The notes below the pieces were generated by a model. It did not search any database. It saw nothing but the letters and a program-made list of their open reading frames with translations, and had not been told where the DNA came from. The translations under genes were made by a program, and so were the position numbers. This document shows positions 3,364 through 46,878 of a DNA stretch of 64,000 nucleotides, piece by piece. The first letter of the stretch is position 1. Every line of letters starts with the position of its first letter. The stretch is from an uncultured bacterium (lineage in GTDB: Bacteria; Muiribacteriota; Ozemobacteria; Ozemobacterales; Ozemobacteraceae), in NCBI GenBank assembly GCA_937949615.1, contig CALEDQ010000008.1, positions 700,618 to 764,617 on the forward strand, in the 5' to 3' direction.

Positions 3364-3551
3364 ATACAAAAATGAGAAAAACGCAGCGAGGCTGCGTCAC
3401 GTGAAAACAAAACCGGGGAACAAAACTTATGCTTATTAAAGCCTTCTATCGGCCCTAACTGAAAAGTCGTCTTTTCAGTTCAGAGACCTTGCCAAAGGTC
3501 TTATAACCCAACAATATCCCTTTTGAGAGCTGATACCAGCTCTTTTTTTTT
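3364..3551 (+). ncRNA. Candidate small RNA or nadE 3'-UTR-derived transcript, family unknown
   Basis: About 190 nt bracketed by the promoter above and an intrinsic terminator. Only 9-10 codon ORFs without an SD. Several short hairpins: acgcagc-gag-gctgcgt at 3381-3397, ctgaaaag..cttttcag, and agacctt..aggtct. Confidence 0.3.
3526..3551 (+). terminator. Rho-independent terminator (plus strand)
   Basis: Stem agagctg / cagctct with loop atac, followed by a run of about 9 T. On the minus strand no T-run follows the hairpin, so it acts on the plus strand only. Confidence 0.6.
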
Positions 3552-3559
3552 GCCAGAAA

Positions 3560-4144
3560 TCACTGCATTCTGGCAATCTGGCGGCCAATCGAGGCGGCCT
3601 GGATTCTTGCGGTTCTCGTGGCCTGATAAACTCGCTGCCGAAGTTCTTCATAGCGTTTCGTTCGACTGTCATAAGAGTTCGAAGCCTGAGTCGATACAAG
3701 CATGACAGTCTGTGCCGGAACAGCCACCTGGCGATCCTCATACGGTTTTGCAACGGCAGAATTTGCCACTTTTGTCTCGGAAACTGCTACAGCGGCACTT
3801 TCGAGATTATCATCGATTGCCGGCGTCGTTTCTGAGTCGTGAAAAAGAACGGTTACGGCAACATCTTTGCGACTTTCGAGCTCTTCAACGATCTTTTCGC
3901 CTTTTACTTCAGGCTGTTCCAGAATCAACCCGGCAGCATCGTCGCCCGCGGAGGTATCAACCTTGACATTCCGCGACTGATAATTATGCAGTTTGTCTCT
4001 GAGTGCCTGAATTCTCTGATTCAGTTCGCGACCGGCAATCGTTTTCTGAGCCATGACCTGATCTGCTCCACCAAAAATCATAAACCCGGCAATTACCAGA
4101 CCACCAATGAACCTGCGCATCGAATAACCTCCAGAAAGCTTCAT
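3560..4144 (-). CDS. Hypothetical secreted protein, last gene of the beta-helix lipoprotein operon
   Basis: Signal-peptide-like N-terminus MRRFIGGLVIAGFMIFGGADQVMAQ. It lies 45 nt downstream of the preceding gene on the same strand. I recognise no family motif. Confidence 0.5.
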   Translation of the reverse strand: MKLSGGYSMRRFIGGLVIAGFMIFGGADQVMAQKTIAGRELNQRIQALRDKLHNYQSRNVKVDTSAGDDAAGLILEQPEVKGEKIVEELESRKDVAVTVLFHDSETTPAIDDNLESAAVAVSETKVANSAVAKPYEDRQVAVPAQTVMLVSTQASNSYDSRTKRYEELRQRVYQATRTARIQAASIGRQIARMQ

Positions 4145-4189: not shown

Positions 4190-6172
4190 TCAACTGTCGC
4201 TGCCGTAGGCGCCCGGCTGCCCGGAACGGTCTGAGGAATTGATTACCGGTGAGTCAGCCCGCAGCCGGTAACTGTAATTTTCTTCGTCTCCTCCCACAAA
4301 AAGCGGGTCGAGGTTGATAATCGGAGCCCCGTTCTGATCGCAGTTCACCGTTGCCTGCGAAAATCCATAAATATTGTTGTATGGGTATGATCGGCCGGCA
4401 CCGCCCAGCTTGTCTTCAATACCAACACCGGTATTCTGATTTCCGCGATTAACAAGAATACAATTTTTGATCGTCGGCAGATCTGAACCTTCAACGATCA
4501 TGCCATTACCGGCATCGACAGTCAGATACTGCAGATTGGCTGCGGCAGCCCCGGTAATAACCCCGGTCTGCACAGATTGAATCAGACCGTTGCGAATCTT
4601 CGCCGGTTGCCGGTCAACGACCCGCAGACCTGTTCCGCGAACTTTTCTCAGATCGAATCTTGAGAATTCCAGGCCCGAGTTCCCGGCAAGGATAACCCCT
4701 TCTGCGACGTTCACGGCCTTAATGTCTGTTACAATACAGTTAAAAGTGTTCTCTACAGACAAAGCGGTCTGGCAGTCTTCAAGATTGAGACCTGAAATTA
4801 CTGTGCCGCTGGCCGTCTGCAAGGAAAAGCCGGTCTGACAGAATCTGACCGAAACGCTCGCAACTTCAACCGCTGAGCTGTAAATGGTAAAAGCTCTCTC
4901 GGCACCCGAAACTTCGATGTTTTTCAGCACGCTGCCCTGCTGCCCGGCAGCGGCTACCAGGCGGATGCCATCCCAATCCGTTCGTGACGGCACCCCTGAA
5001 GCAGAAATCATGCGAATCGGCTCGTTGTCGCTGCCGGCCGCAATGATGGTTCCTTCAACAATCAATTCACAAACATTCGGGCGAAAACCAGAACGGCCAT
5101 TGTCTTCGGCGGCAAAACGAACAACGCAGCCGGCCTCGATTGTCAAAGTCTTGCCGGCAGGAACTATCAGATCGCCATTGAGACTGATCGGGCTCCAGGC
5201 CTTTTTCCAGACAAGATCTTCAGCAATGCGCCCGCCGGCAACAATGTTTACCAGTGCGCTCATCGAAGAAACACTGCCATCGAGATCGACGGTCTGCATG
5301 CCATACTGATAAATGCGCCCCGGAACCGCGGTTTCATCGGCAAATGAATTCTGTGAGGCAAAAATTTCACTCTCAGCCTGAATCATTTTCAGAGTCCCGT
5401 AGTTTTCGCCCCTGAAAAGCCTGAAACCAGAGGCCGGGTCAAGCCCGGTGTAGCTCCAGCTGACAACAGGGCCGTTACTGCCCTGATCGACCTTCACATA
5501 GTCGACCGCACCAGGAGCACCCTGCAGATCACCAACCGGAACCGTTTTGAAAGAACCGGCTTCTGCGGTATAACGCCGCCCGTCAGTTGTGGTTCCCTGA
5601 AGGTCGTAAAGATACTCAGAACCGGCAAAAAGATTTGGCAGAATTATCTGATGTGAGGTCAGTGCAGCGGTAGGCGGCAGCTGAATTCTCGCCCCGGTCT
5701 TTTCACGCCAGCCAATCAGAATCGACATCGGCTCTTTGCAGGTCACGTCGATCACAGCCCGGTTGCTCTCACGAACTGCAACTTTGTGGGTAATCATATT
5801 ATCGACAGGCTCCACAACGATGCTGACACCCTCAAGAACCTGCCCATAGGTTATCTCGACTGTTTTCGACGCCAGATAGTAACCACTCCGCTGCACGCTC
5901 AGGCGGTGAGAACCGACATCGAGAGAAGTGAACTCGAAATGACCTTGCTTATCGGTTTCGGCCTTGAACAGAGAACGATGCGAGGTTATCACCGCACCGA
6001 CAACCGGGTTGTTAAGCGTATCGGTCACATTGCCGTTCACCGAACCGCGCTGTGTGTGCATTTTGTTTTCGCAGCCCGAAGCGGCAAAAAGAACCAGAAG
6101 CAGAAAGAAAGCCAGAAGCACTTTTCCAGAAGACATGGCGGCACTGACTGCGCGTTTAAACTGGCTGATCAT
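4190..6172 (-). CDS. Lipoprotein with a carboxypeptidase-regulatory-like domain, FN3-like domains and a right-handed parallel beta-helix (paralog 3 of 3 in transcription order)
   Basis: Lipobox LFAASGC. GSVNGNVTDTLNNPVVGAVITS..GHFEFTSLDVGSHRLSV is CarboxypepD_reg/PEGA-like. FN3-like segment SWSYTGLDPASGFRLFRGE..GRIYQYGMQTVD. Beta-helix rungs follow. C-terminal NNIYGF..DPLF..YSYRL. ATGA overlap with the upstream gene. Confidence 0.75.
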   Translation of the reverse strand: MISQFKRAVSAAMSSGKVLLAFFLLLVLFAASGCENKMHTQRGSVNGNVTDTLNNPVVGAVITSHRSLFKAETDKQGHFEFTSLDVGSHRLSVQRSGYYLASKTVEITYGQVLEGVSIVVEPVDNMITHKVAVRESNRAVIDVTCKEPMSILIGWREKTGARIQLPPTAALTSHQIILPNLFAGSEYLYDLQGTTTDGRRYTAEAGSFKTVPVGDLQGAPGAVDYVKVDQGSNGPVVSWSYTGLDPASGFRLFRGENYGTLKMIQAESEIFASQNSFADETAVPGRIYQYGMQTVDLDGSVSSMSALVNIVAGGRIAEDLVWKKAWSPISLNGDLIVPAGKTLTIEAGCVVRFAAEDNGRSGFRPNVCELIVEGTIIAAGSDNEPIRMISASGVPSRTDWDGIRLVAAAGQQGSVLKNIEVSGAERAFTIYSSAVEVASVSVRFCQTGFSLQTASGTVISGLNLEDCQTALSVENTFNCIVTDIKAVNVAEGVILAGNSGLEFSRFDLRKVRGTGLRVVDRQPAKIRNGLIQSVQTGVITGAAAANLQYLTVDAGNGMIVEGSDLPTIKNCILVNRGNQNTGVGIEDKLGGAGRSYPYNNIYGFSQATVNCDQNGAPIINLDPLFVGGDEENYSYRLRADSPVINSSDRSGQPGAYGSDS

Positions 6173-8154
6173 AAGCGAGAAACCCCATATCTGCCCAATT
6201 CTGAGCCATAAATATCCTGAAGTTTCAGAGTCGATTCCGGCAACAATCGATAGTCGTAAGGATTACCGGCAGCAAATTTAGGATCGATCGAAAGAGCACC
6301 GGTTGAGGCTGAACATCCCCGGTAATTTTCGGCGAAGCCATAAATATTGTTAAAGCCATATTCAGGTAAAAGCACGGTCAGGTTCTCAATGCCGACCGCC
6401 CCCCTCTGATAGCGGTCAACGATGATATTGTTCTGTATGGTAACGTTACCCGCTTTAACCAGAATGCCATTTCTCGCATCGACAGTTACATGATCGATAT
6501 AGTTGTCGTATGAATGCAGAATGTTGTCGCAGACAATGCCGCTACCTTCATGGCTCACAATCAGGGTCCTGATCACACGATTGCGGCCCCAGGTCCCTTT
6601 GATGCCAAACGAAGTTGCGTAGATATCGCAGTCTCTGACAATAATCTGGTCTTCATTTTTATCGGTTGAGGTAAGTATGCCGGTATGAACCTCAGAAAAA
6701 AGCCCATTTTCAATGGTCAATCTGCGGCAGTTCTTCAGTTCAAGAGCCACTGAGGCAATTTCGCTGAAACGGCATGAAGACAGGCTCATAACCTCGCGAA
6801 TACCATCGAGGCGCAAACCATGCTGCGAATATGATATCTCAAGATTGCTGATCCTCATGTTCAGGGCTGAAACATCGAGGGCATAACCACTGCAGCCGAA
6901 CAACCTGGCATGGCTGATGTCTGAAATGCCCGTCTGCGACGAAAGAATTCTGATACCGGCCCAGTGATCACGCCGGCCTGAACCGTTCAGCGGCGCAAAA
7001 ACCACTGGCGCTTCAGCGGTGCCACTGATCTCGATTCGCCCCTGAACAGTGATTTCAACTCGCTGTTCATCAGAACCGGCAGCGAGAGAATCGCTCTCAC
7101 TGACAAGAATTTCGGTGCCGGCTTCGAGCACCAGGCTTGCGCCGGCCGCCACGATCAGGTCAGAATAGAGCCTGACAGGTGAATCTGCAAGGGTTAGAAC
7201 CGTTGTCTGACTGATAACGCCAGGAACAAAAACCATTTCAGAAACGGTGGCATCTGATTCAGCCCCGAGGTTATTAACGGCTTTAACGGCATACCTGCAG
7301 AAACTGCCGGTGACTGCCGCCTTGTCGGCATAACTGACTGCCCGGGCATCGATACTGCTCTCATTGATTTTAAGCCAGTCGCCACCTTTAACCTGACGGT
7401 AAAGATTGTAACTGGCTGCCGGGAAACCTGAAGCGGCAGGCTGCCACTCAACTTCCACGGCACCAAGGTCCGTAAATGGGCGAATGTTAAGGCTGACCGG
7501 CGATGAGGGCCGATCGGCACCCTCGGTTTTGAACGAGTAATCATAAGAAAAATAACTGTCGTTGCTCTCGTCGAGATACTGCACCCTGAAATGATAAAGG
7601 GTTTCGGGCAGCAGATTTTCAATAACCAGACGATGCTCGTTGGCCGGCCTCAGTTCGCGAATCAGGCTGCCGTAAAAAATGGTTGTGCCATACTCGATAT
7701 TGCAGATTACGCTTTTATAGGTGTTCCAGGAAATCTCCGCACTGGTCGACGCCGTTTTTTCGACCTTCACGCTGCTGATACGATTCGGCGCGTTGGCCTT
7801 GTCGAGCCTGATAAAATCAAGAACTGTCGAGTCGCCTGATTTGATTTCAATCTGCCGTTCTTCGATGGCAAAATCAGGGTGAAGAATAACGATGTTGTTG
7901 ATTCCGGCCGGCAGTTCAGAAAGATAGAAGCCGCCGTCAAGGCCACTCAGAACCTTTTCACGTTCAGCAAAAATCGAAAAGACCTCGGCATTGACGACCG
8001 CATTGCCTGAGGCATCGATAACCCGGCTATGCAGACTGCCGGTCTGAGACTGCCGCATACCACAACCGGTCAGACTGGCCAGAGATGCGAAAATTGCCAG
8101 CAGAATCGCCGGCAAAAGAAGATTTCTGACGCTGATTTTTTCAGTCAGGAACAT
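6169..8154 (-). CDS. Lipoprotein with a carboxypeptidase-regulatory-like domain, FN3-like domains and a right-handed parallel beta-helix (paralog 2 of 3)
   Basis: Lipobox SLTGC. GSLHSRVIDASGNAVVNAEVFS..GGFYLSELPAGINNIVI. FN3-like ISWNTYKSV..TLYHFRVQY and VEWQPAASGF..YNLYRQ. C-terminal NNIYGF..DPKF..YDYRL. 14-nt overlap with the upstream gene. Confidence 0.75.
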   Translation of the reverse strand: MFLTEKISVRNLLLPAILLAIFASLASLTGCGMRQSQTGSLHSRVIDASGNAVVNAEVFSIFAEREKVLSGLDGGFYLSELPAGINNIVILHPDFAIEERQIEIKSGDSTVLDFIRLDKANAPNRISSVKVEKTASTSAEISWNTYKSVICNIEYGTTIFYGSLIRELRPANEHRLVIENLLPETLYHFRVQYLDESNDSYFSYDYSFKTEGADRPSSPVSLNIRPFTDLGAVEVEWQPAASGFPAASYNLYRQVKGGDWLKINESSIDARAVSYADKAAVTGSFCRYAVKAVNNLGAESDATVSEMVFVPGVISQTTVLTLADSPVRLYSDLIVAAGASLVLEAGTEILVSESDSLAAGSDEQRVEITVQGRIEISGTAEAPVVFAPLNGSGRRDHWAGIRILSSQTGISDISHARLFGCSGYALDVSALNMRISNLEISYSQHGLRLDGIREVMSLSSCRFSEIASVALELKNCRRLTIENGLFSEVHTGILTSTDKNEDQIIVRDCDIYATSFGIKGTWGRNRVIRTLIVSHEGSGIVCDNILHSYDNYIDHVTVDARNGILVKAGNVTIQNNIIVDRYQRGAVGIENLTVLLPEYGFNNIYGFAENYRGCSASTGALSIDPKFAAGNPYDYRLLPESTLKLQDIYGSELGRYGVSRL

Positions 8155-10153
8155 CTTCTGCTCCTATGGTTTCATAATCATAACCGGCGCCTTTAACCGG
8201 GCTTCCTGAAGACGGCTTATAGTTGAAGTCTTCGTTCAACTGGCTGGCAAACGGGTCGCCGCCCTGCAGGCCGGGGCCGGCAAGTTCGGTAAAACTGAGA
8301 TCGCCAGAATAGCCGGTCAGAGCCGTGCCATCAGAGTTGGCATATTTGCGGTTGCCGGCGGCGTTCCAGATGCCATTGTTCTGAATAAACTGGGTATTTG
8401 TTGCAGTAGAAGGGTTATATGGCACACTACCGCTGTACATAATGCCAACCCCATTGCGACTGTTGTCAGCAAGAACGAGATTGCTCCTGACCACCGCCTG
8501 GGCAGTCTCTTTGATTTCGATGCCAACATTGGCCTGAACCGTGTTGCGACGCACTTCATCTTTGCCGCGGCAGATGATGCCAATGCCGCCCGAACCATAA
8601 CCAATTACGTTATATCTGGCCTTTGAAGCTGTTTCAGTATTACCGAGATCGATACCACAGGCACCCGAAAGACCGATACGGTTGCGTTCGATTTCGGCCA
8701 GTTTGTTGCCGCGGCAGATGATGCTGTTTATACATCTGCTGATCTGACAGTCGAGAATCTGAACCTTAACCTGATTGTTCTGCAGATCGATGCCAGAACC
8801 GCAGGTCTCGATAGTCAGGCTGCGAAAAGCCTGGTCACGTCTAGCTGAGGTCATCTTAACCGCCGCCAGCCGGCAGCTGTTGAAAGACGACTCTTTAACC
8901 TCCGGCAGACCGGCCACGCCGTTGATGCCGTTTTGTGCATACGAAAGGCGCAGACCTTTGATCAGACTGGCCCCGAGATCTGAGACATTTTCGAAGGTAA
9001 TGCCGTTCCAGTCGCCCGGTTGCGGGGAAACTGCCGACGAAGTCATGGTGACCGGCTGCAGTGAAGTGCCCTGAACCATTAAAGTGCCCTGAACACTGAT
9101 ATCGATAAGGTCATCGGCAGAATCAGCATCCCACTGATCGCCTTTTGCAACCGCGACGGTAACCCCTTTGTCGAGAATCAGACTGGCATTGGCCGCAATC
9201 GTGAGATCACCGGTGAGATAATAGGGTGATTCCTGACTTGTCCAGACAGCGTTGGTGGTCATGACACCAGGCATCACAAATGCTTCGGTATTTGAGGGTG
9301 AAGATTCGTCACCAGACCCTGAAAGTCTGGTAACCCGGTAATAATATTTGCTGCCGGCCAGAACATCGTTATCAATATAAGTATTCTGGTTAGTCACCGT
9401 TCCAAGGCGGTTGAAGGGCCCCTGGGCCGTGTTCGATTTATAAACTGCAAACCCGGCAAAATCAGCACCGGAGTCAGAATTCCAGTTAAGTACGATCGCA
9501 TTGCTGTTGGCAGCTTTGCTGAGCTTCAGACCCACCGGTGGTTCACCACGTGTGGTGATGAGAGTGTTGAAAGTCTTTATTTCTGATTCAAGCCGTCGGC
9601 CGGTTTTGTCGGTGGCAACGCATTTGAATCTATAACTTGAAGCCGGATTCAGACCGGTCAAATCATACTGATGCAGAAAAATCAGCTCGGCATCAGTCGG
9701 AGTGGTTTTGTCGAAAAGGGCGTTAACTCCATAGCTGACGCTGGCCCGCGCCTGAAATTTTGTATAGAAGGTTATTATCGCCCGGCTCGAAGTAATTCCG
9801 CTGACCTGAATGTCATAGATTTCACTGTCAGCCGGCAGAGCGAAATTAACCCCCGAAACCGTCTCGCCGCTTACCACATCGATATTTTGTGTCTGCGTCT
9901 GATAGTTCTCGCGGGCAGCAGTGATTTCTGTAAGCTGCGGGGTCAGCGAAGTCAGGGCCCACTTGCCGTAAACATCAGAAAATGTCGAGGCTTCGGTGGT
10001 ATAAACCTTGACCGCGCTCAACGGGTTTCCTGACGAATCGGTGACAAGACCCGTAATACTGCCACGTGCCGGCGAATCAGTATTCATGCAGCCGGCATGT
10101 GACATGAGAGCAATAATCAATAAGAAAATGGCAATAAGTCTGATTTTTTTCAT
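8141..10153 (-). CDS. Lipoprotein with a carboxypeptidase-regulatory-like domain, FN3-like domains and a right-handed parallel beta-helix (paralog 1 of 3, first gene of the operon)
   Basis: Signal peptide ending SHAGC. GSITGLVTDSSGNPLSAVKVYT..GKWALTSL. FN3-like LNWNSDSGADFAGFAVYKS..SKYYYRVTR. Beta-helix rungs with repeated G-I/N-x-I patterns. Same length class (660-670 aa) as its two neighbours. Confidence 0.75.
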   Translation of the reverse strand: MKKIRLIAIFLLIIALMSHAGCMNTDSPARGSITGLVTDSSGNPLSAVKVYTTEASTFSDVYGKWALTSLTPQLTEITAARENYQTQTQNIDVVSGETVSGVNFALPADSEIYDIQVSGITSSRAIITFYTKFQARASVSYGVNALFDKTTPTDAELIFLHQYDLTGLNPASSYRFKCVATDKTGRRLESEIKTFNTLITTRGEPPVGLKLSKAANSNAIVLNWNSDSGADFAGFAVYKSNTAQGPFNRLGTVTNQNTYIDNDVLAGSKYYYRVTRLSGSGDESSPSNTEAFVMPGVMTTNAVWTSQESPYYLTGDLTIAANASLILDKGVTVAVAKGDQWDADSADDLIDISVQGTLMVQGTSLQPVTMTSSAVSPQPGDWNGITFENVSDLGASLIKGLRLSYAQNGINGVAGLPEVKESSFNSCRLAAVKMTSARRDQAFRSLTIETCGSGIDLQNNQVKVQILDCQISRCINSIICRGNKLAEIERNRIGLSGACGIDLGNTETASKARYNVIGYGSGGIGIICRGKDEVRRNTVQANVGIEIKETAQAVVRSNLVLADNSRNGVGIMYSGSVPYNPSTATNTQFIQNNGIWNAAGNRKYANSDGTALTGYSGDLSFTELAGPGLQGGDPFASQLNEDFNYKPSSGSPVKGAGYDYETIGAEDVPD

Positions 10154-13151: not shown

Positions 13152-16130
13152 TCAGTCGGTTTCGAAAGGGTTATGGTCGTTGGTTCCGGCTGCATGAGCC
13201 CGGTCGGCAGTGAACAGTCTGACGAATTCGCCAGCCCAGAGAACCAGTGAAGTGCTGGCGATAATGATCAGCCACGTGGCAAGATCGAGCGGTTCAGTTC
13301 TGAACATGCTCCGACCATACTGAACGATCAGAAACTGACCAAGAATGATGGTCGGGAGAATAAAGATAAAACCCTTGTTCTCGGTTATACGATTGAATGC
13401 TGATTTTTTAAGCCCCAGAGCCCTGGCATTGAACATGTTCCAGACCTGCAGCATAACGAACACCGTGAAAAAGATCGAGAGTTCACGCACGCTGACATCG
13501 CCATCCTGCTGAAAATACTTGAGCAGACCGATGAGCACCAGGTAAAAAACCGCCCCCACCCCAAAAATATGTGTATACATCGGCCGGGAAACGATAAAGT
13601 CGTCGGGGCGTCTCGGGGTGCGGCTCATAACTTTCCAGTGCGGGGGTTCGGTTGCCAGCGCCAGAGCCGCGAAAGTATCCATAATCAGGTTAACCCAGAG
13701 CATCTGCACAACCGTCAGCGGCATTTTTATGCCAATAAAAGGGCCGGTCAGGGCGACAGCAAGTGCCACCACGTTGATGGTCAGCTGAAACATGACAAAG
13801 CGTTGAATATTTTCATAGAGAGAGCGCCCCCACATGATGCCCTTAACCACGCTGGGAAACGAATCGTCGAGAAGAATGATATCGCTGGCTTCCTTGGCAA
13901 CTGAAGTGCCGGTTTTGCCCATGGCCAGACCGACATTGGCATGGTTCAAAGCGGGCGCGTCATTGGTTCCGTCGCCGGTGACCGCCACGACATGATCACG
14001 CTGCTGCAGCAGTTTAACCATTTTCATCTTATCTGCCGGCCTGGCTCGCGACATTATCTTGATTTTTTCGACAGCTGCAAGCGCCTCTTTGTCATTGAGA
14101 GCCTGAAAATCGCTGCCGGTAATATGAACCTGGTTCTGCACATCGCCCTGATCGAGCAAGCCGATCTGATTTGCTATTTCCCAGGCGGTGTTTGAATTGT
14201 CGCCGGTAATCACCTTGACCTGTACACCGGCGCTGCGGCAGACATTGAGAGCCATCGGCACATCGGGCCTTATCGGGTCGGCAATGGCAACAAAGCCGAG
14301 CCAGGTCAGATTCTGAGCTATATTATGCAGATCGCCGTCAGGTGCACGATCGAAACCTCGCAAAAACGCAAATCCCAGGGTTCGCATACCTCTGGCCTGC
14401 TGATTGCGCAACTCTTCACTGATCTTTGCCGAAAAGATACCGATCGCCTGGAGTCCTTTATCGGTAAGAATTTCAGAGCATTTAGTCAGAACCAGCTCCG
14501 GAGCACCTTTAAAATACATGATTTTTTCTTTGCCAGCGCCAGAAAGCCCATAAGAAGCCATCATCTTGCGCTCGGTCGAGAAAGTCCACTGTTTTTCAAG
14601 CGAAAAAGCTTCGCGCAACGCCAGATAGTCGATACCAGAGTCTTCAAGCCACAGCAGGGTTGCCCCTTCAGTCGGATTGCCGAGAGTTGTAACCGACTCA
14701 CCCGGTTTGCGCGAAATATTTGCGGTACTGTTGGCGGCCATAGCTTCGGCGATGATTTTTTCGATATCACTTGCCATATCCCGGTTCAGACGTGAACCCT
14801 TCAACGCCGGAAAATGCACCGAGCTCATGACCATGCGATTCTGAGTCAGGGTTCCGGTTTTATCTGAGCAGATAACCGTAGCTGCACCTATGGTTTCGCA
14901 GGCATGCATACGCCGCACCAGATTGTTGGCAGCGGTCATTTTGCGCATGCTGTAGGCAAGACTCAGAGTAACGCTCATCGGCAGTCCCTCTGGCACAGCA
15001 ACAACGATGATGGTTACAGCAATCATGAAGAATTTGAGAAATTCACTGACTGCTTCACCGGTAAGCCACAGCGAGGGTTCTTCGGGTAAAAAGCCGGTCA
15101 AGATACCGGTAAGCGTACAAAGCCCACCAAACACGACCCCGGAAGAGACCACCTTAACCCATGATTTAAGATCAGAGCGGGTTATTATCTTAGGCAGGTG
15201 CAGATCGCGGCCGGCAAATTCAAAGCCGTCGGCCAGAATCGGCAGCCAGACCTTCGCCAGCGAAATCATGGCACTGAACATCAGAATCAGCGCAAAACCC
15301 CATTGCGAAGAGGTCAAAGTCAGCTCACCGACTGCATAATCACGGACAACAAGGGCAGTAAATGTAAGAAAAGCTATCGAAAAACCGACCACCCCGATCA
15401 GCTTGCTGAGTCGATCGAGCTGGCGGTTGAGCGGCGTTTCCTCATCACTGTCTTCTCCGGCTGCTCTGGCGGCTTTGCCGATCTCAGTAGCGTCACCGAC
15501 TGCAGTAACCAGCATTTTACCATGGCCATCATTGACCATCGTACTCCGCAGAAGCACATCAGCAGGGTATGCAGCCTCGTGTTCCGCCTGAAATGAGGCT
15601 GAGTCAGCTGCATATTTTGTGGCAGGCATCGATTCGCCCGTAAGTTTGGCCTCATCGACCTGCAGCGAAATGGATTCGATAACCCTGCCGTCAGCTGGAA
15701 TCTCTTCACCCGGCTCAAGCAGCACGACATCACCAACGACGATATCTTTTATCGGCACTGTGGTGAAAGCGCCATCGCGAATAACATTAACCGGCGCCTC
15801 GTCAGAAACCTGATTCAGAATGTCGAATTCTTTGCCGGCTTTGTATTCGTTGAGAAAAGCAAGGGTTGTGGCCAGAAGAATGGCAATTATGATGCCGATG
15901 CCTTCGAAATATTCGCCATTGATGAATCCGACAAGAATGGCAATGAATGCGGCAATCATCAGAATTCTAATTATCGGGTCATCGAATTTTTCGAGAAGAA
16001 GCCGCCACCATGGCTCACGTTCGGGCGGGGTAAGTATATTTGCGCCGAATTTGCGCCGATTCTCAACGACCTGCAACGATGTCAGGCCTTTGAGAGAATT
16101 GTTGTTTGTCTGCCCGGCGTCAGCCGTCAT
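13152..16130 (-). CDS. Calcium-translocating P-type ATPase, PMCA-like (P2B)
   Basis: LTGESMP, VVAVPEGLPMSVTLSLAYSMRKM, the phosphorylation site ICSDKTGTLTQN, KGAPE, DPIRPDV, and VAVTGDGTNDAPAL. From memory, the TM4 and post-TM4 sequence matches the PMCA pattern rather than the SERCA pattern. Confidence 0.9.
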   Translation of the reverse strand: MTADAGQTNNNSLKGLTSLQVVENRRKFGANILTPPEREPWWRLLLEKFDDPIIRILMIAAFIAILVGFINGEYFEGIGIIIAILLATTLAFLNEYKAGKEFDILNQVSDEAPVNVIRDGAFTTVPIKDIVVGDVVLLEPGEEIPADGRVIESISLQVDEAKLTGESMPATKYAADSASFQAEHEAAYPADVLLRSTMVNDGHGKMLVTAVGDATEIGKAARAAGEDSDEETPLNRQLDRLSKLIGVVGFSIAFLTFTALVVRDYAVGELTLTSSQWGFALILMFSAMISLAKVWLPILADGFEFAGRDLHLPKIITRSDLKSWVKVVSSGVVFGGLCTLTGILTGFLPEEPSLWLTGEAVSEFLKFFMIAVTIIVVAVPEGLPMSVTLSLAYSMRKMTAANNLVRRMHACETIGAATVICSDKTGTLTQNRMVMSSVHFPALKGSRLNRDMASDIEKIIAEAMAANSTANISRKPGESVTTLGNPTEGATLLWLEDSGIDYLALREAFSLEKQWTFSTERKMMASYGLSGAGKEKIMYFKGAPELVLTKCSEILTDKGLQAIGIFSAKISEELRNQQARGMRTLGFAFLRGFDRAPDGDLHNIAQNLTWLGFVAIADPIRPDVPMALNVCRSAGVQVKVITGDNSNTAWEIANQIGLLDQGDVQNQVHITGSDFQALNDKEALAAVEKIKIMSRARPADKMKMVKLLQQRDHVVAVTGDGTNDAPALNHANVGLAMGKTGTSVAKEASDIILLDDSFPSVVKGIMWGRSLYENIQRFVMFQLTINVVALAVALTGPFIGIKMPLTVVQMLWVNLIMDTFAALALATEPPHWKVMSRTPRRPDDFIVSRPMYTHIFGVGAVFYLVLIGLLKYFQQDGDVSVRELSIFFTVFVMLQVWNMFNARALGLKKSAFNRITENKGFIFILPTIILGQFLIVQYGRSMFRTEPLDLATWLIIIASTSLVLWAGEFVRLFTADRAHAAGTNDHNPFETD

Positions 16131-16173
16131 TTTATTTCTCCATAAAAATAAGAAAATGCAGAAAATTTTTGGA

Positions 16174-16202
16174 AAGGCGGTTAATTATATCCCTTCAGAC
16201 GA
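16174..16202 (-). promoter_or_regulatory. Candidate sigma70 promoter for the ATPase gene
   Basis: Minus strand TTGAAG, 17 nt, TATAAT, overlapping the 3' end of the cyclase gene. GGAG SD lies before the ATPase ATG. Confidence 0.35.
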
Positions 16203-19200
16203 ATAACTTCAAACATTTCGACTGCCGAGGTCTTGCCTTTAACGGCTGTTTCCGAAAGTTGTTCGACTTCTATCGCCTGTTCGACAAGGTCTAGAGTCGA
16301 ACGGCTGATGATTACACAAGTATGCCTGCCCAGCTTGCTCATACCCTCAAGACGGGAGGCAACGTTTACGGTATCACCGATTACGGTTCTGTCCATGCGG
16401 CCGGGCGAACCGATGTTACCGGCGATTACATCACCTGAATTTATGCCCACTCCGATTTTAATGGCAAACAGACCATGACTGAGGCGCTGCTGATTGAATT
16501 TATCGAGAGCATCCATCATTTCGAGCGCACATTTTACAGCATTAAGAGCGTAATCTGCCGGATTCTCTCCGGCTGGCGGAATAAACTGGGCCATAATTGC
16601 ATCGCCAATGAATTTATCGATATCACCACCGAATTTTTCGACCACTTCGTTCATGGCGGCAAAATATTCGTTAAGAAGACTGACAACGTCCTCGGCAGAA
16701 TTCGATTCTGAAATTGTTGTGAAGCTGCGGATATCCGAAAAAAGAATGGTCGCCGGCACTTTTTTACCGCCCATCTGCCGGTCTTCTCCCTTAACAACCG
16801 CATCGACAGCAGAACGCGACAGATAGCGAGTCATGCGTTCGCGCTCGTCGAGCCCCTGATTCATTTTATTGAAAGCCTGCGCCAGCTCGACAATTTCATC
16901 TTGCCCGGGCAGAAGCACTTCGGTCTGGTAATTTCCGCTTTCAACTTCTTCAACACCCCGGCGCAGGAGAACAACCGGTTCGATCAATGAACGGGCCATA
17001 ATACGCGCCAGAACCATTACAACAGCAAGAGAAACCAGAATTGACACAAAAATAAACTGCCAGAGAAATCTGAGTTCCTGTTCAATTTCGGCATAATTGA
17101 ACAGTGCAACCACCGTCTGCTGCTCGACACTGATTGGCCTGAAACTGTAAAACAGGCATTCTCGACCGCCTGTTTCGAGAGTAATCTTTTCTTTGACGCT
17201 GTTGCCATTCAAGCGGGTAGTTTCTGACAGGCGCCCGAGCCTCACAGAATCTGGACTGTCTGAAATATAATCGAACCATGGATCAGCCAGCGGAGTATCG
17301 TAAAAATAATGTGAAGTGCCGCAGTCGTTCTCACCAAAATATAATTGAATGCGATTTTTAAACTTCGGCTGGCTACAGATCTTTTCGATCATCATGCGCA
17401 GATACATTCTTTCAAAATGCGCGTCGCGCAACAGCATGACCATAATGAAAGTTTCACCGGGGAAGTTTCTTGAAACGAACTGCCCGATGTAAAAAATACT
17501 GCTGCGACCGCTGAATTTCATTTCAAAGGCACGATTTTCGCGGGCGTTAAGAATCGCCCTTATTTCTTCAAGGTTTGAGCCGCCGGTTGCCTCTACCACC
17601 AGGTCCATCAGGCTTACGTCAAGAACTTTTCCTCTGGTCTGAAGTTTACCCGAAGCCCTGAGTTTAATTTTGGCAAGCGACTGCACAAGCGGCATAAGAT
17701 TACTGCCTTCGCCTGTATCAAAATCCTGATCAGAGAACATGGTAACCAGCTCGGCATATGAGTTGAACAGGTAGGTATGAAGAATGTTAACTTGGTCGCC
17801 ATGCCTTCGCAGAATCTCATTTGCTTTATCTGTTCTGGCAAAACGCCCACTGCTGTCAAATTCGAGGTTCATCAGATCAGACCCGATTGCATCGGCAATC
17901 TTTTCAAGCTGCCGAAATGCATAACTCATGTTTTCATCGAGGTCCTTGCGTATCTGGTCAATTTCTTTGTAGGCATCGGCTTCAAAGGATTTCTGGCGAT
18001 CCTGAAGCAGTTCAAAACCAAGCTGAAACACCGCCACTGCTGGCAAAAGAACGGCAAAAACAAACAACCCGGTAATCTGAAAGCGGATGCTGAAAGCCAT
18101 ACCATCGTTACGACGCCCCGAAAAGATTATCAGGAGCGGCAGGACCGCAATAAAAAGAAAAAACAGAGACAAAAAGAAAACTTTTCTTTCATACTGCATT
18201 ATCAATGAGCGGGTGCCTGCAGCAGTAAGAATAATGAGGCCCTCGCCAGCACGCTTAACCGAGAACATTACCCCGCTGCGTTCATAAAGTCCATCTGGCT
18301 GAGAAACGATCTGCTCTGCCCATTTTTTTCCGTCAGCAGCCGGAAACGGGTATGGAAGATGATGCTGCCGAGCCCGGGTTTCAGCAATCCAACCGATGGA
18401 GAGCCCTGAGCCTTCCCACTCTTGCGATTTTCTTCTGATGAGGGTTTGGAGGCCAAACAATTCTGGCAGTTCCGTTTCAATAACAGCCAGAAAACCACCG
18501 GCGGTACGACGACTCGCATTCATATCGAATGTCTTTTCTGAATCCCAGAACATCATCAGCTTATTGCCCGCTGGATTGCCACATTCAAGAAGGTCGCCAG
18601 AATATTTCAAGAAATTGCCCAGACCTGAAGCTTCTGTAAAATAGCGGTTAAGCATCGGAACATATTCAAGATAGTCAAAAGCAGCACCGTGCCGCTGGCC
18701 TTTAGGATTGACACTGCGTATGATAGATTCAGCAAGCTTCTGGTATACCCACTTGGGCTTCAACTGGTCGCTGTCTGGGCGCTCACGCATATCGAGCCCC
18801 CACTTAACAAGCTTCACACCCGGCAACAGCTTTTTCAGCCTGATTTCATAATGTTTTTGCAGGGCAGCCAAAGCTGATTCACTTATTTTCAGCCCATCGA
18901 TCAGGTGTGGATGGCAACCGAATGCAAAGTCTTCAAGTAACTGTCTGAAAAAAGCGGCACTCTTTAAGGGTTCGTTGTATTTCTGGGTGAAATCTCTCAG
19001 AAGTTCTCTGACCTGAACAGACTTTCTGGCCTCAAAAGCCAGTCTGCTGGCAAGTTTTTCGACCTCCTGAGCTATTTCATTGCGGGCCATGGTGGCCGTA
19101 GTGGCAAAAGCCGCAGTCGCCTGCCTGAACAGAATGGCAAAAGGAATGCTCAAAAGCAGAAAAATTGCCGCGAGCCATTTCCACAATGGCAGTGGCGGCA

Positions 19201-19252
19201 ATCGCAAAGTTTTTTTCTGAAAGCTTTCGATATTGGTGGCCATTCTTTTCAA
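16181..19252 (-). CDS. Membrane receptor-type class III adenylate/guanylate cyclase with HAMP domain (all catalytic residues canonical)
   Basis: Four TM segments flank two approximately 300-aa non-cytoplasmic regions. HAMP (SLIEPVVLLRRGVEEVESGNYQ..). The CHD has ILFSDIRSFT, DKFIGDAIMAQF and IGDTVNVASRLEG. Confidence 0.85.
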   Translation of the reverse strand: MKRMATNIESFQKKTLRLPPLPLWKWLAAIFLLLSIPFAILFRQATAAFATTATMARNEIAQEVEKLASRLAFEARKSVQVRELLRDFTQKYNEPLKSAAFFRQLLEDFAFGCHPHLIDGLKISESALAALQKHYEIRLKKLLPGVKLVKWGLDMRERPDSDQLKPKWVYQKLAESIIRSVNPKGQRHGAAFDYLEYVPMLNRYFTEASGLGNFLKYSGDLLECGNPAGNKLMMFWDSEKTFDMNASRRTAGGFLAVIETELPELFGLQTLIRRKSQEWEGSGLSIGWIAETRARQHHLPYPFPAADGKKWAEQIVSQPDGLYERSGVMFSVKRAGEGLIILTAAGTRSLIMQYERKVFFLSLFFLFIAVLPLLIIFSGRRNDGMAFSIRFQITGLFVFAVLLPAVAVFQLGFELLQDRQKSFEADAYKEIDQIRKDLDENMSYAFRQLEKIADAIGSDLMNLEFDSSGRFARTDKANEILRRHGDQVNILHTYLFNSYAELVTMFSDQDFDTGEGSNLMPLVQSLAKIKLRASGKLQTRGKVLDVSLMDLVVEATGGSNLEEIRAILNARENRAFEMKFSGRSSIFYIGQFVSRNFPGETFIMVMLLRDAHFERMYLRMMIEKICSQPKFKNRIQLYFGENDCGTSHYFYDTPLADPWFDYISDSPDSVRLGRLSETTRLNGNSVKEKITLETGGRECLFYSFRPISVEQQTVVALFNYAEIEQELRFLWQFIFVSILVSLAVVMVLARIMARSLIEPVVLLRRGVEEVESGNYQTEVLLPGQDEIVELAQAFNKMNQGLDERERMTRYLSRSAVDAVVKGEDRQMGGKKVPATILFSDIRSFTTISESNSAEDVVSLLNEYFAAMNEVVEKFGGDIDKFIGDAIMAQFIPPAGENPADYALNAVKCALEMMDALDKFNQQRLSHGLFAIKIGVGINSGDVIAGNIGSPGRMDRTVIGDTVNVASRLEGMSKLGRHTCVIISRSTLDLVEQAIEVEQLSETAVKGKTSAVEMFEVIRLKGYN

Positions 19253-19351: not shown

Positions 19352-20116
19352 ATGCCCGCAAAACCCGCCATATTTCTGAAAAACCTCAACACCCTCGAAG
19401 TCGAGCAGCTGCTTCGCCGCGAAGCGCCGCTCTTTTTACCGATCGGCACCCTTGAAGCGCACGGTCGCCACCTTCCGGTAGGTACAGATACGCTCTGCGC
19501 CGAAAAAATTGCCGAACGTCTCAGTCTCGGCCTCGACGCCGCAGTTGCTCCAAGCCTCGAATACGGCATAACCAACGTTCTTGCCCAGACATCACCAGGC
19601 AGCTTCTTTTCAGAAGAACTTTTCGAAAACTTTGTCGAAAAAATAATCGACACTTTTCGGCTACAGGGTTTTAAAACCATCATCGTCGTAAATGGGCATG
19701 GCGGCAATCGTGATGCCCTCAAAAGAGTCGTCAGAAAACTTTCGCGCGTAAGACCGACCGGGCTCGCAGTCATCAACTGGTGGCTGATTTCAGAGCGCTT
19801 CGTCGAAAAGATTTATGGCGGCAAACCTGGTGGGCACGCAGCTGTCGAAGAAACTGCCGCCATTCTCAATTTTTTCCCTGAGCTGGTCAAAAAAGCGAAC
19901 TATCATCCGGAAAATGACGATTATATCCCGGACGAAGGCATCTGGATGTACCCGCCGCCGGGCGAGGTTATCATCGATCACCCAGGCAATGGGCAGCCCG
20001 ACTTTTCAGCCGAAAAAGCGGCCCGGTTCATCGATGCAACTATTGATGAATTGATGACAAAACTGCAGAGATGGTTAAAGTCGTTTAACCGTATCAGAGG
20101 AGGGCTCCGCCCTTGA
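19352..20116 (+). CDS. Creatininase-family amidohydrolase
   Basis: LPIGTLEAHGRHLPVGTDTL and VVNGHGGN motifs typical of the creatinine amidohydrolase family. Extended -10 (tgtgataat) lies upstream. Confidence 0.7.
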   Translation: MPAKPAIFLKNLNTLEVEQLLRREAPLFLPIGTLEAHGRHLPVGTDTLCAEKIAERLSLGLDAAVAPSLEYGITNVLAQTSPGSFFSEELFENFVEKIIDTFRLQGFKTIIVVNGHGGNRDALKRVVRKLSRVRPTGLAVINWWLISERFVEKIYGGKPGGHAAVEETAAILNFFPELVKKANYHPENDDYIPDEGIWMYPPPGEVIIDHPGNGQPDFSAEKAARFIDATIDELMTKLQRWLKSFNRIRGGLRP

Positions 20117-20346
20117 GCGAAATCGAAGCACCCATCTGGGTCAAATATGCCGGCGATATCTTTTTTCTGATTCTTTTTCTGGTGATTTTTTTCTTTATCA
20201 AGCCTGACCAGACAACAGAACTTCACGACAACAATGACTCAGAGGCGCCAAATCCTCTCGAAGCGATGCTGGTTACCGAAGAAAAGTCAGATGAAGAAAA
20301 TACTCCGAACGACGAAACCGGTAAACAGACCGGCGATAACGAGTAA
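20113..20346 (+). CDS. Hypothetical small membrane protein with an acidic tail
   Basis: TTG start overlaps the creatininase stop. One TM segment (IFFLILFLVIFFFI), then a D/E/N-rich tail. No family motif. Confidence 0.35.
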   Translation: MSEIEAPIWVKYAGDIFFLILFLVIFFFIKPDQTTELHDNNDSEAPNPLEAMLVTEEKSDEENTPNDETGKQTGDNE

Positions 20347-20363
20347 AACAAAGCTTTTCGGGC

Positions 20364-20391
20364 AAAAAAAAGGCCCCGGTTTCCCGGGGTG
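20364..20391 (-). terminator. Rho-independent terminator (minus strand)
   Basis: Minus strand reads ACCCCGG-GAAA-CCGGGGCC followed by TTTTTTTT. This is a GC-rich stem with a GNRA-type loop and an 8-T tract. Confidence 0.75.
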
Positions 20392-20561
20392 CTGTATTCT
20401 CAGCTCCTTTTAACCCAACCTTCCAGGGCAGCGTGTGTGATCTCTTATACTGCGGCAACACGTTAGCAGCCGTGTATCTGGCATTATCTGGAGAGACGCC
20501 AGGCCAGATTACCCGACGATACCATGAAGCAGAGCTGAAGAATTGCCTTTAACTCTACCTG
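20364..20561 (-). ncRNA. Candidate sigma54-dependent small RNA (about 195 nt), family unknown
   Basis: It lies between the sigma54-type promoter at 20573-20588 and the terminator at 20364-20391. There is no credible ORF; the best is 13 codons without an SD. The 5' TTCtTCAGCTC can pair with the 3' GAGCTGAGAA. An internal hairpin is atctggc..gccagat. Confidence 0.45.
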
Positions 20562-20572
20562 CCGGATTAATA

Positions 20573-20588
20573 AGCAATTTTAATGCCA
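20573..20588 (-). promoter_or_regulatory. Sigma54 (RpoN) -24/-12 promoter
   Basis: Minus strand TGGCAT-taaaa-TTGCT has exactly the TGGCAC-N5-TTGCW spacing, with GG and GC 10 nt apart. It sits in a 450-nt non-coding gap. Confidence 0.55.
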
Positions 20589-20660
20589 CAGCATGCGAAT
20601 ATGGTAGAACCCTCTATTGAAGCTATTTATAGAATCCATACAAGTTATGACTGAATTTTA

Positions 20661-20720
20661 GAGGTAAATTTGCCACAGATAAATCAGGGAAATTTATTTT
20701 TTCTGCGAGGTAAATCTGCC
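20661..20720. repeat. Direct repeats GAGGTAAATnTGCC (possible enhancer/UAS or helicase-promoter operator)
   Basis: gaggtaaatttgcc at 20661-20674 and gaggtaaatctgcc at 20707-20720 match 13/14. A degenerate third copy agataaatcag lies near 20678. The repeats are about 75-135 nt upstream of the sigma54 element and about 80-140 nt upstream of the helicase ATG. Confidence 0.5.
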
Positions 20721-20799
20721 TCACGTATTTTATATCTGGACAGCTGGCCCGGCGACGCATAAAATAATTGCAATTAAAAGAAGATGAAAGGTAAGAAAC

Positions 20800-22332
20800 A
20801 TGACCCAGGAACTGGCAACAGAACCAAACGAACAGATACAGCACGAAACTCCGGGCAGCTTTGTCGAAGTACTTCCTCCCTCAGCAATCCAGGATTTCAG
20901 CCAGGAATTGCAGGCCGCCGTCAGCCGCAGAGGCTGGAAAGAACTGATGCCGGTACAGGCGGGTGTTTCACCCTATCTGCTTGCCAACCGCGATGTAATC
21001 GTTCAGTCGAGAACCGGAAGCGGCAAAACCGCCGCATTTCTGCTGCCATTGTGCGAACGCCTCAAAAATGCGCCAAAAGGCTGCCATGCTCTGATCCTTG
21101 TGCCCACGCGCGAACTGGCGCAGCAGGTTTATAACGAATTTCAGCTGCTCACAACCGAAATGCAGATCAGCGCTGTCGCCGTCTATGGTGGAACTTCATA
21201 TCGCCCACAGCTCGAGGCTTTCAGAAACGGCGTCAATCTTATCATCGGCACGCCCGGTCGCCTTCTCGACCATCTGATCAAGGGCACTCTCAACCTTAAA
21301 ACTCTCAAATACCTTGTATTCGACGAAGCCGACGAAATGCTGTCGATGGGTTTCTATCGCGATATGGTAAGAATCGGTGAATTTCTGCCGACACGCCGCT
21401 GTGCAGCCATGTTTTCGGCAACCATGCCCGACAGCGTAAAAAGGCTGGCGGTTCAGTTTCTGCACAACCCTGATTTTTTGACTTTCAGCGGTGACGGCGT
21501 TCATGTTTCTGAAATGGACCACATTTTTTATGTCGTGGATCCAATGCAGAAAGACCGCGCCCTGATGCGCATCATCGAACTCGAAGACCCCGACAATGCC
21601 ATCATTTTCTGCAATACCCGCAACGAAGTTGAATATGTGGCCGCAATTCTCAAACGCTTCGGTTATGACGCCGATCAGATAAGCGGCGACCTCAGCCAGA
21701 ATGCCCGTGAACTGGTCATGGCGAAGCTCAAACAGAAAACCCTCAGGTTCCTGGTTGCGACAGATATTGCCGCCAGAGGCATAGACATAAGCAATCTCGA
21801 ATATGTTTTTATTTATGACATGCACAAAGATACCGACCAGTACATTCACCGGGCCGGCAGAACTGCACGGGCCGGCAATCGCGGGGTCGCCATAAGTCTG
21901 GTCAACCAGATCGAAGCCGTCGACCTCAAAAAGTTCGCAAAAAGGGCCGGCATTTCGCTGGAAGAACGGCCGCTGCCAACCGAAGAACACGTCAGACAGC
22001 GCCTCTCAGAAAAGCTTGCCGCCCATCTCGAAGGCAGTCTCAGAGATGCCTCGACCGCTGTCAGAGAGAGAATGAAACGCTACCATGGGCTGCTGTCTGA
22101 ACTCAACGACCATGAGCACGGCGAAGAAATGCTTCTGATGCTCATCGATTCATTCCATCAGCAGCTGATCAGAATCGGACGCGGCATCGATCACGAGCCT
22201 GTTGCAATACCGGTCTCACATGCCTCAACCCGAAGACCGGACCAGGACCGCCACCGCCCGCATGGCGGCGAGCGTGGTGGGCAGCGCGGTGGTGATCGCG
22301 GCGGCCAGCGTGGACCACGCCGGCGGAACTGA
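20800..22332 (+). CDS. DEAD-box ATP-dependent RNA helicase with an RGG-type C-terminal tail
   Basis: TGSGKTAAF, PTRELA, GTPGRL, VFDEADEML, SAT, ARGID and HRAGRTARAG motifs. The tail is GGERGGQRGGDRGGQRGPRRRN. Confidence 0.9.
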   Translation: MTQELATEPNEQIQHETPGSFVEVLPPSAIQDFSQELQAAVSRRGWKELMPVQAGVSPYLLANRDVIVQSRTGSGKTAAFLLPLCERLKNAPKGCHALILVPTRELAQQVYNEFQLLTTEMQISAVAVYGGTSYRPQLEAFRNGVNLIIGTPGRLLDHLIKGTLNLKTLKYLVFDEADEMLSMGFYRDMVRIGEFLPTRRCAAMFSATMPDSVKRLAVQFLHNPDFLTFSGDGVHVSEMDHIFYVVDPMQKDRALMRIIELEDPDNAIIFCNTRNEVEYVAAILKRFGYDADQISGDLSQNARELVMAKLKQKTLRFLVATDIAARGIDISNLEYVFIYDMHKDTDQYIHRAGRTARAGNRGVAISLVNQIEAVDLKKFAKRAGISLEERPLPTEEHVRQRLSEKLAAHLEGSLRDASTAVRERMKRYHGLLSELNDHEHGEEMLLMLIDSFHQQLIRIGRGIDHEPVAIPVSHASTRRPDQDRHRPHGGERGGQRGGDRGGQRGPRRRN

Positions 22333-46143: not shown

Positions 46144-46878
46144 TTAAAGAGGTTTTTCTACTGCAAGACCACATTTACGCGGGTAACGCTCAGACACAGC
46201 GCAGGTTTTGCGAAGAATCAGAAAATTTCTTTCAAACGGTAACTCGGGTGGAGCAAGCCGCAAAATTTCAACATTCTCGACGGCAACAGAAAAAACTGCA
46301 AAGGCATTAACCGATTCTGAAAGCTCCTCGTCAAGCTTCGGACCTTTATAATACAGCGCATAGCCGCCAGTACGGGTCAGAGGCATGGTATATTCAACCA
46401 GAGTTCTGACTGCCGATAATGCCCGGCAGACAACCAGATCGGCCTGCTCTCTGAACTTGGCATCGCGGCCGATCTCTTCTATGCGGGCGTGATGAGTCTC
46501 TATATTGGTAAGACCGGCAGCGGCAGCCATTCTTGCCACAAACTCAACAGACTTCTGCCTGGAGTCGATCGCGACGATCCTGCTGTGCGGCAAAGCCACC
46601 GCCAGCGGTAACGACGGAAACCCGCCACCCGTACCAAGATCAACAATTTTCGCCGATTTCCAGAGTGGAAGATTGAAGCAGACAGGCGCCAGACTGTCGA
46701 GAAAGTGCTTCATTGCCATTTCATGCGGGTCAAATATTTTCGAAACACTTTTATACATAGGGTCGGATAGCATGGCCGATGCAAGCCTGTCGAGCTGCCC
46801 ATACTGCTCTTCAGACAGCCTGATCTTGAGTTTTTCGAGACAGGGAAAAAGAAATTCTCTGATTCTTACCTCATTCAT
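46144..46878 (-). CDS. rsmG: 16S rRNA (guanine527-N7)-methyltransferase
   Basis: SAM motif IVDLGTGGGFPSLPLA. 8-nt overlap with mnmG upstream. Confidence 0.85.
   Translation of the reverse strand: MNEVRIREFLFPCLEKLKIRLSEEQYGQLDRLASAMLSDPMYKSVSKIFDPHEMAMKHFLDSLAPVCFNLPLWKSAKIVDLGTGGGFPSLPLAVALPHSRIVAIDSRQKSVEFVARMAAAAGLTNIETHHARIEEIGRDAKFREQADLVVCRALSAVRTLVEYTMPLTRTGGYALYYKGPKLDEELSESVNAFAVFSVAVENVEILRLAPPELPFERNFLILRKTCAVSERYPRKCGLAVEKPL

Follow-up and report, generated by a model that had tools for sequence, protein, structure and literature searches.

The regulatory logic in which a sensor acts through an enhancer-binding protein (bEBP) and sigma-54 on a small RNA (sRNA) is known from Proteobacteria. 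The Qrr RNAs of Vibrio, about 100 nt long, are driven by LuxO and sigma-54, and NrsZ of Pseudomonas aeruginosa and Pxr of Myxococcus are single RpoN-dependent sRNA genes under a -24/-12 promoter. GlmY is a decoy for a protein, RapZ, and is controlled together with GlmZ by GlrR/QseF, the GlrR site being TGTCN10GACA; CrcZ sequesters Hfq/Crc. The GlmY and GlmZ genes of Enterobacteriaceae have a sigma-54 promoter with repeated activator sites at about -100 to -230 (PMC3045617, PMC6075780), CrcZ and CrcY of Pseudomonas depend on CbrB and sigma-54 (PMC6296734, PMC8871633), and CJnc230 of Campylobacter jejuni is an RpoN-dependent sRNA encoded downstream of a flagellar gene (PMC11187230). Riboregulation in never-cultured candidate phyla is essentially unmapped, and our search of the literature for Riflebacteria sRNAs or sigma-54 control in this group found none.

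Here we describe the likely gene of a regulatory, non-coding RNA of ~200 nt that occurs throughout Candidatus Riflebacteria; we propose that the RNA depends on a bEBP and sigma-54 and works in trans. The kind of system is familiar and the finding is solid rather than surprising; it offers a test case of the above logic far outside the Proteobacteria, in which a complete regulatory module (activator sites, -24/-12 promoter, RNA and terminator) can be read from sequence, recurs across the phylum and is accompanied by RNA in wastewater reactors. The gene lies in the 64-kb window (the whole stretch of DNA analysed, 64,000 nt), within a gap first put at about 450 nt and measured at 453 nt, from the stop of a 77-aa ORF (20346) to the start of a DEAD-box helicase gene (20800; Table 1). 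The window derives from a genome of Candidatus Riflebacteria (Ozemobacteraceae-like): the helicase is 97% and 96% identical to those of Candidatus Riflebacteria/Ozemobacteraceae MAGs, followed by a graded series of Riflebacteria loci down to ~69%. Searches with the helicase (one genome per species) and with the 77-aa protein in metagenomes, the latter yielding at least five further loci, gave a comparison set of 20 distinct homologous loci, each carrying the same module on the same strand. All DNA runs that contain the stretch are wastewater, sludge or bioreactor metagenomes.

Table 1. Coordinates of the features at the sRNA locus, numbered within the window; negative positions in the remarks are relative to the predicted transcript start.
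Feature	Position	Strand	Remarks
77-aa ORF	20113-20346	+	4-nt overlap with the end of the creatininase-family gene
Intrinsic terminator, CCCCGG-GAAA-CCGGGG, CC, U8	20389-20364	-	hairpin 20389-20374, T8 20371-20364
P1 3' strand, GGAGCUGAGAAU	20407-20396	-	pairs with AUUC-u-UCAGCUCU
Motif AAGGUUGG, within GCUGCCCUGGAAGGUUGGG	20415-20422	-	proposed functional site: seed or protein-binding
P1 5' strand, AUUC-u-UCAGCUCU	20543-20531	-	
Observed molecule end	20547	-	X7: Illumina adaptor read directly after 20547; X7/X8 contigs end at 20546/20547
Predicted primary transcript, 199 nt, non-coding	20562-20364	-	+1 from promoter geometry, 3' end from U-tract
Sigma-54 type promoter TGGCAT-N5-TTGCT, TGGCATtaaaaTTGCT	20588-20573	-	GG at -25/-24, GC at -13/-12
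Box TAGAGGGTT	20608-20616	-	~-50 from predicted start; judged by eye
Proximal dyad GAGGTAAATTTGCCAC	20661-20676	+ as written	centred ~-106, 46 bp from distal dyad; putative bEBP site
Distal dyad GAGGTAAATCTGCCTC	20707-20722	+ as written	centred ~-152; putative bEBP site
DEAD-box helicase gene	20800-22332	+	

Every Riflebacteria locus has kept the 77-aa ORF, always in convergent orientation to the sRNA gene; its product, for which Pfam gave no match, combines a single hydrophobic helix with an acidic tail and a PNPLE motif that does not vary. Two of the contigs carry unexpected titles, 'Candidatus Methylomirabilis sp.' (L013) and 'Erysipelotrichia bacterium' (L007), and are probably mis-binned or mislabelled, since both hold a Riflebacteria-type helicase, the 77-aa ORF and the sRNA.

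The sequence-only reading from which this work started had recognised no RNA family at the locus, and that judgement stands. A scan of the whole window with 4,227 Rfam models, including Qrr, GlmY, GlmZ, CrcZ, NrsZ, Pxr, 6S and RsmY/Z, gave no match at the gathering threshold; the best regional score was that of RsmY (13 bits against a threshold of 57, E = 1.1), and scans of the region and six relatives at E-value thresholds returned noise only. We rejected 6S RNA, suggested by size and paired ends, given the lack of a match to the 6S model and a sigma-54 promoter that would be odd for 6S, and likewise a CsrA/RsmY-like sponge, suggested by the weak RsmY match, given that the RNA has a single copy of the motif and no conserved GGA.

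Compared with the described systems, the predicted gene resembles Qrr in its orphan sigma-54 promoter, its upstream activator sites, its short terminator-ended RNA without an ORF and a highly conserved stretch presumed to contact the target. It differs in length (~200 against ~100 nt), in being single copy per locus, in its activator site and in its phylum, and the negative Rfam scan shows no similarity of sequence or structure. To GlmY/GlmZ it is alike in its ~200 nt, in what appears to be processing to a shorter form and in a conserved single-stranded stretch before the terminator; however, the sequence is unrelated (no Rfam match), there is no link to glmS, processing here is apparently 5', and the dyad GNGGYAAATTTRCCNC differs from the GlrR site. 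With CrcZ/CrcY, the output of a two-component system, it would share the dependence of a non-coding RNA on a bEBP and sigma-54, but CrcZ is ~400 nt long with several A-rich repeats that sequester Hfq, whereas the Riflebacteria RNA is free of repeats and its one invariant motif is G/U-rich. CJnc230, NrsZ and Pxr are similar as single sRNA genes under a -24/-12 promoter and show no homology, as judged for NrsZ and Pxr by the negative Rfam scans only. The dyad also differs from the known activator sites of the Qrr, GlmY/GlmZ, CrcZ and CJnc230 systems. The locus offers annotation a new RNA family, one with no matching Rfam entry, and the dyad offers a handle on a sigma-54 signalling pathway with which the activator and its regulon could be found.

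The minus-strand -24/-12 element is present with the exact spacing originally described and is the sole exact match to TGGCAY-N5-TTGCW in the 64-kb window; allowing up to one mismatch, the pattern gives three matches against 6.9 expected, weak statistics for the window alone. The case for a module beyond chance is instead made by its conservation in the related loci. An exact TGGCA(C/T)-N5-TTGC(T/A/G) is found on the strand opposite the 77-aa ORF in all 20 distinct loci, that is, wherever a Riflebacteria locus extends into the sequence downstream of this ORF. When the 20 promoters are stacked on this anchor, positions -26 to -22 (TGGCA) and -15 to -12 (TTGC) reach 2.0 bits and are the only invariant positions between -66 and +34, flanks and spacer being variable. 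A divergent contig in run X9 aligns with the window over 20352-20563 only, and its unlike flank still reads TGGCATTAAACTTGCT. This pattern is, as judged from the aligned loci, the phylogenetic footprint of a -24/-12 promoter, and the sequence-only reading, which had staked its proposal on conservation of the element in homologous loci, is supported by an element kept exactly while the surrounding bases vary.

Motifs of the activator and sigma factor (GAFTGA, Walker and RpoN box) are absent from the window and from 23 loci, and neither contains an rpoN, bEBP, Hfq or CsrA gene near the sRNA, so that we infer the presence of sigma-54 in the organism from the promoter only; the RNA would likewise be dependent on sigma-54 and on a bEBP. 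Upstream of the promoter, the box TAGAGGGTT may be a site for a DNA-bending protein or a second regulator. It is kept in L081 and in a divergent contig of run X8, and L003 has TAGAGAGTT in its place; it was found in close relatives only and not in more distant groups.

Further upstream, two direct repeats had been noted in the region where sites for an enhancer-binding protein normally sit. Two near-identical 16-mers are indeed there, but they are better described as dyads than as plain direct repeats, each being an imperfect 16-bp palindrome. The consensus is GNGGYAAA·TTTRCCNC, with one or two 16-bp dyads per locus. Within the window, the dyad pattern has two matches against 0.49 expected, a number reached by 9 of 100 shuffled sequences. 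Across the loci a dyad is present in 19 of the 19 that have enough upstream sequence: groups A and B and locus L007 have two, near -152 and -106/-109 and 42-46 bp apart, group C has a single one at about -97, and the pairs of L008 and L009 lie at -362/-320 and -414/-371. A loose form of the pattern occurs 4.3 times per kb upstream of sRNA starts against 0.09 per kb in the remaining 198 kb, an enrichment of ~47-fold for the interval 60-450 nt upstream of sRNA starts over the rest of the loci. Although the divergent gene is a galT-like one in L014 and an unrelated ORF of 189 aa in L008 instead of the helicase, the dyads keep their place next to the sRNA promoter, and hence belong to this promoter rather than to the helicase. 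Their position, symmetry and spacing point to binding by a bEBP. Elsewhere in the window, a palindrome at 53023-53035 (GGTAAATATTACC) looks like the dyad core with an additional base in its centre; it is single and has no -24/-12 match nearby.

Sequence conservation among close relatives sets in again precisely at the predicted +1 and runs as far as the U-tract. The predicted transcripts of the homologous loci measure 134-222 nt and have a variable middle part. Their ends had been noted as able to pair, and this pairing forms a closing stem, P1, with the general form UCAGCUCU/GGAGCUGA; in the window it is AUUC-u-UCAGCUCU with GGAGCUGAGAAU. P1 is present in 17 of 20 loci, a pair table over 17 loci shows compensatory changes (C-G to U-G or U-A, A-U to G-U, U-G to C-G or U-A), and both of its strands are jointly absent from L005 and L006. 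P1 and the terminator together are 96.4% paired across the loci, and in four pairs both partners have changed; sliding the partner columns as a control lowers the paired fraction to 25-57%. The alignment behind this count is a composite of the P1 5' segment and the 3' module with the variable middle cut out, and the 5' segments were picked by eye, which favours pairing. RNAalifold recovers P1 independently from unedited group B sequences; it does not return P1 for group A, because L005 and L006 lack it. The folding energy of the whole RNA is unexceptional (z about -1.2). The terminator, with its GAAA loop and eight T, lies where it was first seen, and its stem is kept by compensatory change across groups (UA/CG, GC/AU), followed by T7-T9 in all loci.

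The 3' part of the RNA forms a shared block, G(C/G)UK(C/U)C(C/U)CWRR-AAGGUUGG, GGAGCUGA, a GC hairpin and U7-9. The motif AAGGUUGG is invariant in 18 of 20 loci, the remaining two having a one-U insertion, and is single copy in the window; thermodynamic prediction gives it an accessibility only slightly higher than that of the RNA as a whole (0.48-0.55 against an average of 0.40). Single, invariant and standing just 5' of the 3' strand of P1, with the terminator and its long U-tail following, the motif is the obvious candidate for the functional site, and the RNA would act through it. A second conserved block, AAGGCG(U)CU, occurs in groups A and C and in L007 (at ~20497-20489 in the window; also in L014). 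By eye, group C offers it a partner, AGCGCC, immediately 3' of P1, with which it could form an extra outer helix; no partner was seen in group A. A group B covariance model recovers groups B and C, L007 and L006, but not group A (E <= 1), and detected no second copies of the RNA.

Metatranscriptomes were searched as assembled contigs, which are strandless and give only a crude depth. Contigs from five studies (runs X7, X8, X39, X40, X16 and X14) fall within 20242-20563, mostly starting from 20362, and cover the predicted RNA; the promoter and dyad region (20564-20750) has no contig cover in any run. The activated-sludge runs X7 and X8 have contigs in 19800-21180 over 20421-20546 only, with no cover of the upstream plus-strand operon. 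Contigs from relatives span 20362-20513 (X39, starting at the end of the U-tract), 20367 to ~20498 (X40), 20344-20505 (X16) and 20242-20563 (X14). The two adaptor read-throughs, of read-1 type in X7 and read-2 type in X40, would indicate different strands were both libraries dUTP-stranded. Contig ends that lie at the U-tract or close to the predicted start are in keeping with a minus-strand RNA, and we assign the RNA to this strand by inference. The molecule end observed at 20547 lies 15 nt downstream of the predicted +1 and suggests 5' processing, to a form that would begin GGCAAUUC. The X7 contigs span exactly 20547-20421, and the other end falls inside the invariant motif, between GGAA and GGUUGG; this may be a cleavage or processing site or only the end of an assembly.

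The best reading of these data is a new family of trans-acting sRNAs dependent on a bEBP and sigma-54, much as the sequence-only reading had proposed, and the conserved promoter, dyads, RNA and terminator support it. In the mechanism that we propose, a dimeric enhancer-binding protein, not encoded nearby, would bind the 16-bp dyads near -152 and -106 and switch on sigma-54 RNA polymerase held at TGGCAT-N5-TTGCT. Minus-strand transcription would start near 20562 and stop at the hairpin and U8, and the RNA, probably trimmed at its 5' end to G20547, would fold with its closing stem and act in trans. How it acts is the more tentative part of the proposal. Pairing of AAGGUUGG with mRNAs that carry CCAACCUU is the mode that we favour, at slightly less than even odds; the alternative is binding of a protein at the motif. 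The exact complement, CCAACCTT, was found in the 64-kb window and the neighbouring genes of the loci only in the sRNA gene itself, and RNAduplex predictions against the 38 translation-initiation regions of the window gave long, loose and uninformative duplexes.

In the protein-binding alternative, the RNA would be a decoy or sponge for an RNA-binding protein, as GlmY is for RapZ or CrcZ for Hfq/Crc, and AAGGUUGG next to P1 would be the binding site. In its favour, a complementary target is not found locally, in window or loci, the motif is invariant at every base even where pairing would tolerate G-U changes, and the stop of the X7 contig within it resembles a cleavage site. Known sponges, however, carry several copies of their motif where this RNA has one, the lack of a conserved GGA makes CsrA unlikely, and a candidate protein was not found in the window or loci. 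We regard decoy action as rather unlikely, and base pairing as the preferred mode. Somewhat less likely again is a more specific reading, that one Riflebacteria signalling pathway has this RNA as its sole dedicated output, its bEBP acting mainly or only on this promoter in the manner of LuxO-Qrr or GlrR-GlmY, and that the RNA works in the processed form with AAGGUUGG as both recognition element and cleavage site. If this holds, it would be the first riboregulatory circuit to be described for any uncultured candidate phylum, and its mechanism might be the non-canonical one of a protein decoy.

The molecule end mapped to 20547 could also be read as a genuine start, 4-5 nt after a TAGAGT (20557-20552) that would serve as the -10 element of a sigma-70 type promoter, the sigma-54 match remaining unused. 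Such a promoter would have no acceptable -35 element, TTGCTT being only 14 nt away, and no sigma-70 site on the minus strand appears in a promoter scan; groups B and C lack TAGAGT, while TGGCA and TTGC are universal, and positions 20562-20548 are conserved among close relatives, as expected if they are transcribed. We therefore consider a sigma-70 start improbable and retain the start near 20562 from the sigma-54 type promoter.

A still smaller probability attaches to the view that the operon of the creatininase-family gene and the 77-aa ORF, on the plus strand, has its 3' UTR and a bidirectional terminator in the conserved block, the -24/-12 match being incidental. The hairpin does score as a weak plus-strand terminator, and a contig in X14 runs from inside the 77-aa ORF to 20563 in RNA data that carry no strand, but the U8 tract is on the minus strand, and the block stands 120-250 nt from the 77-aa ORF in L003 and L012. 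The contigs are unlike an operon 3' UTR, since they end at the U-tract (where those of X39 and X40 begin) or near the predicted start and, in X7 and X8, leave the operon uncovered. Nor would an incidental promoter match have been kept unaltered in all 20 loci while its flanks varied.

The RNA is non-coding. As first noted, no ORF with a Shine-Dalgarno sequence lies between promoter and terminator, and the only sizeable minus-strand ORF of the gap, a 62-codon GTG ORF at 20273-20461, reads through the terminator; none is conserved among relatives, in which starts, frames and lengths differ. Indels of 1 nt also separate the relatives, and those bases of the motif that would be wobble positions in a reading frame do not vary. 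The least probable of all the readings, a small protein expressed from the sigma-54 promoter, finds some encouragement in several homologues with ORFs of 12-45 codons in which the motif is translated as (E/K)-G-W, but we reject it: that frame lacks a start codon in the window and in most loci, its stops and lengths vary, indels of 1-2 nt fall between motif and stop, third-codon positions are invariant while first positions vary, and no Shine-Dalgarno and start arrangement is conserved. One such ORF, of 31 codons in the L010 homologue (which lies at 3510-3643, minus strand), runs from an AUG at +7 to the UGA of GAGCUGA and is taken as chance because no sibling keeps it.

Beyond the gap, the minus strand at 13152-19252 encodes two adjacent ORFs of ~1000 aa, one of which (16181-19252) has HAMP and adenylate/guanylate cyclase domains, and tandem runs of similar-sized ORFs recur in the window at 4190-10153, 46871-52901 and 57872-63983.
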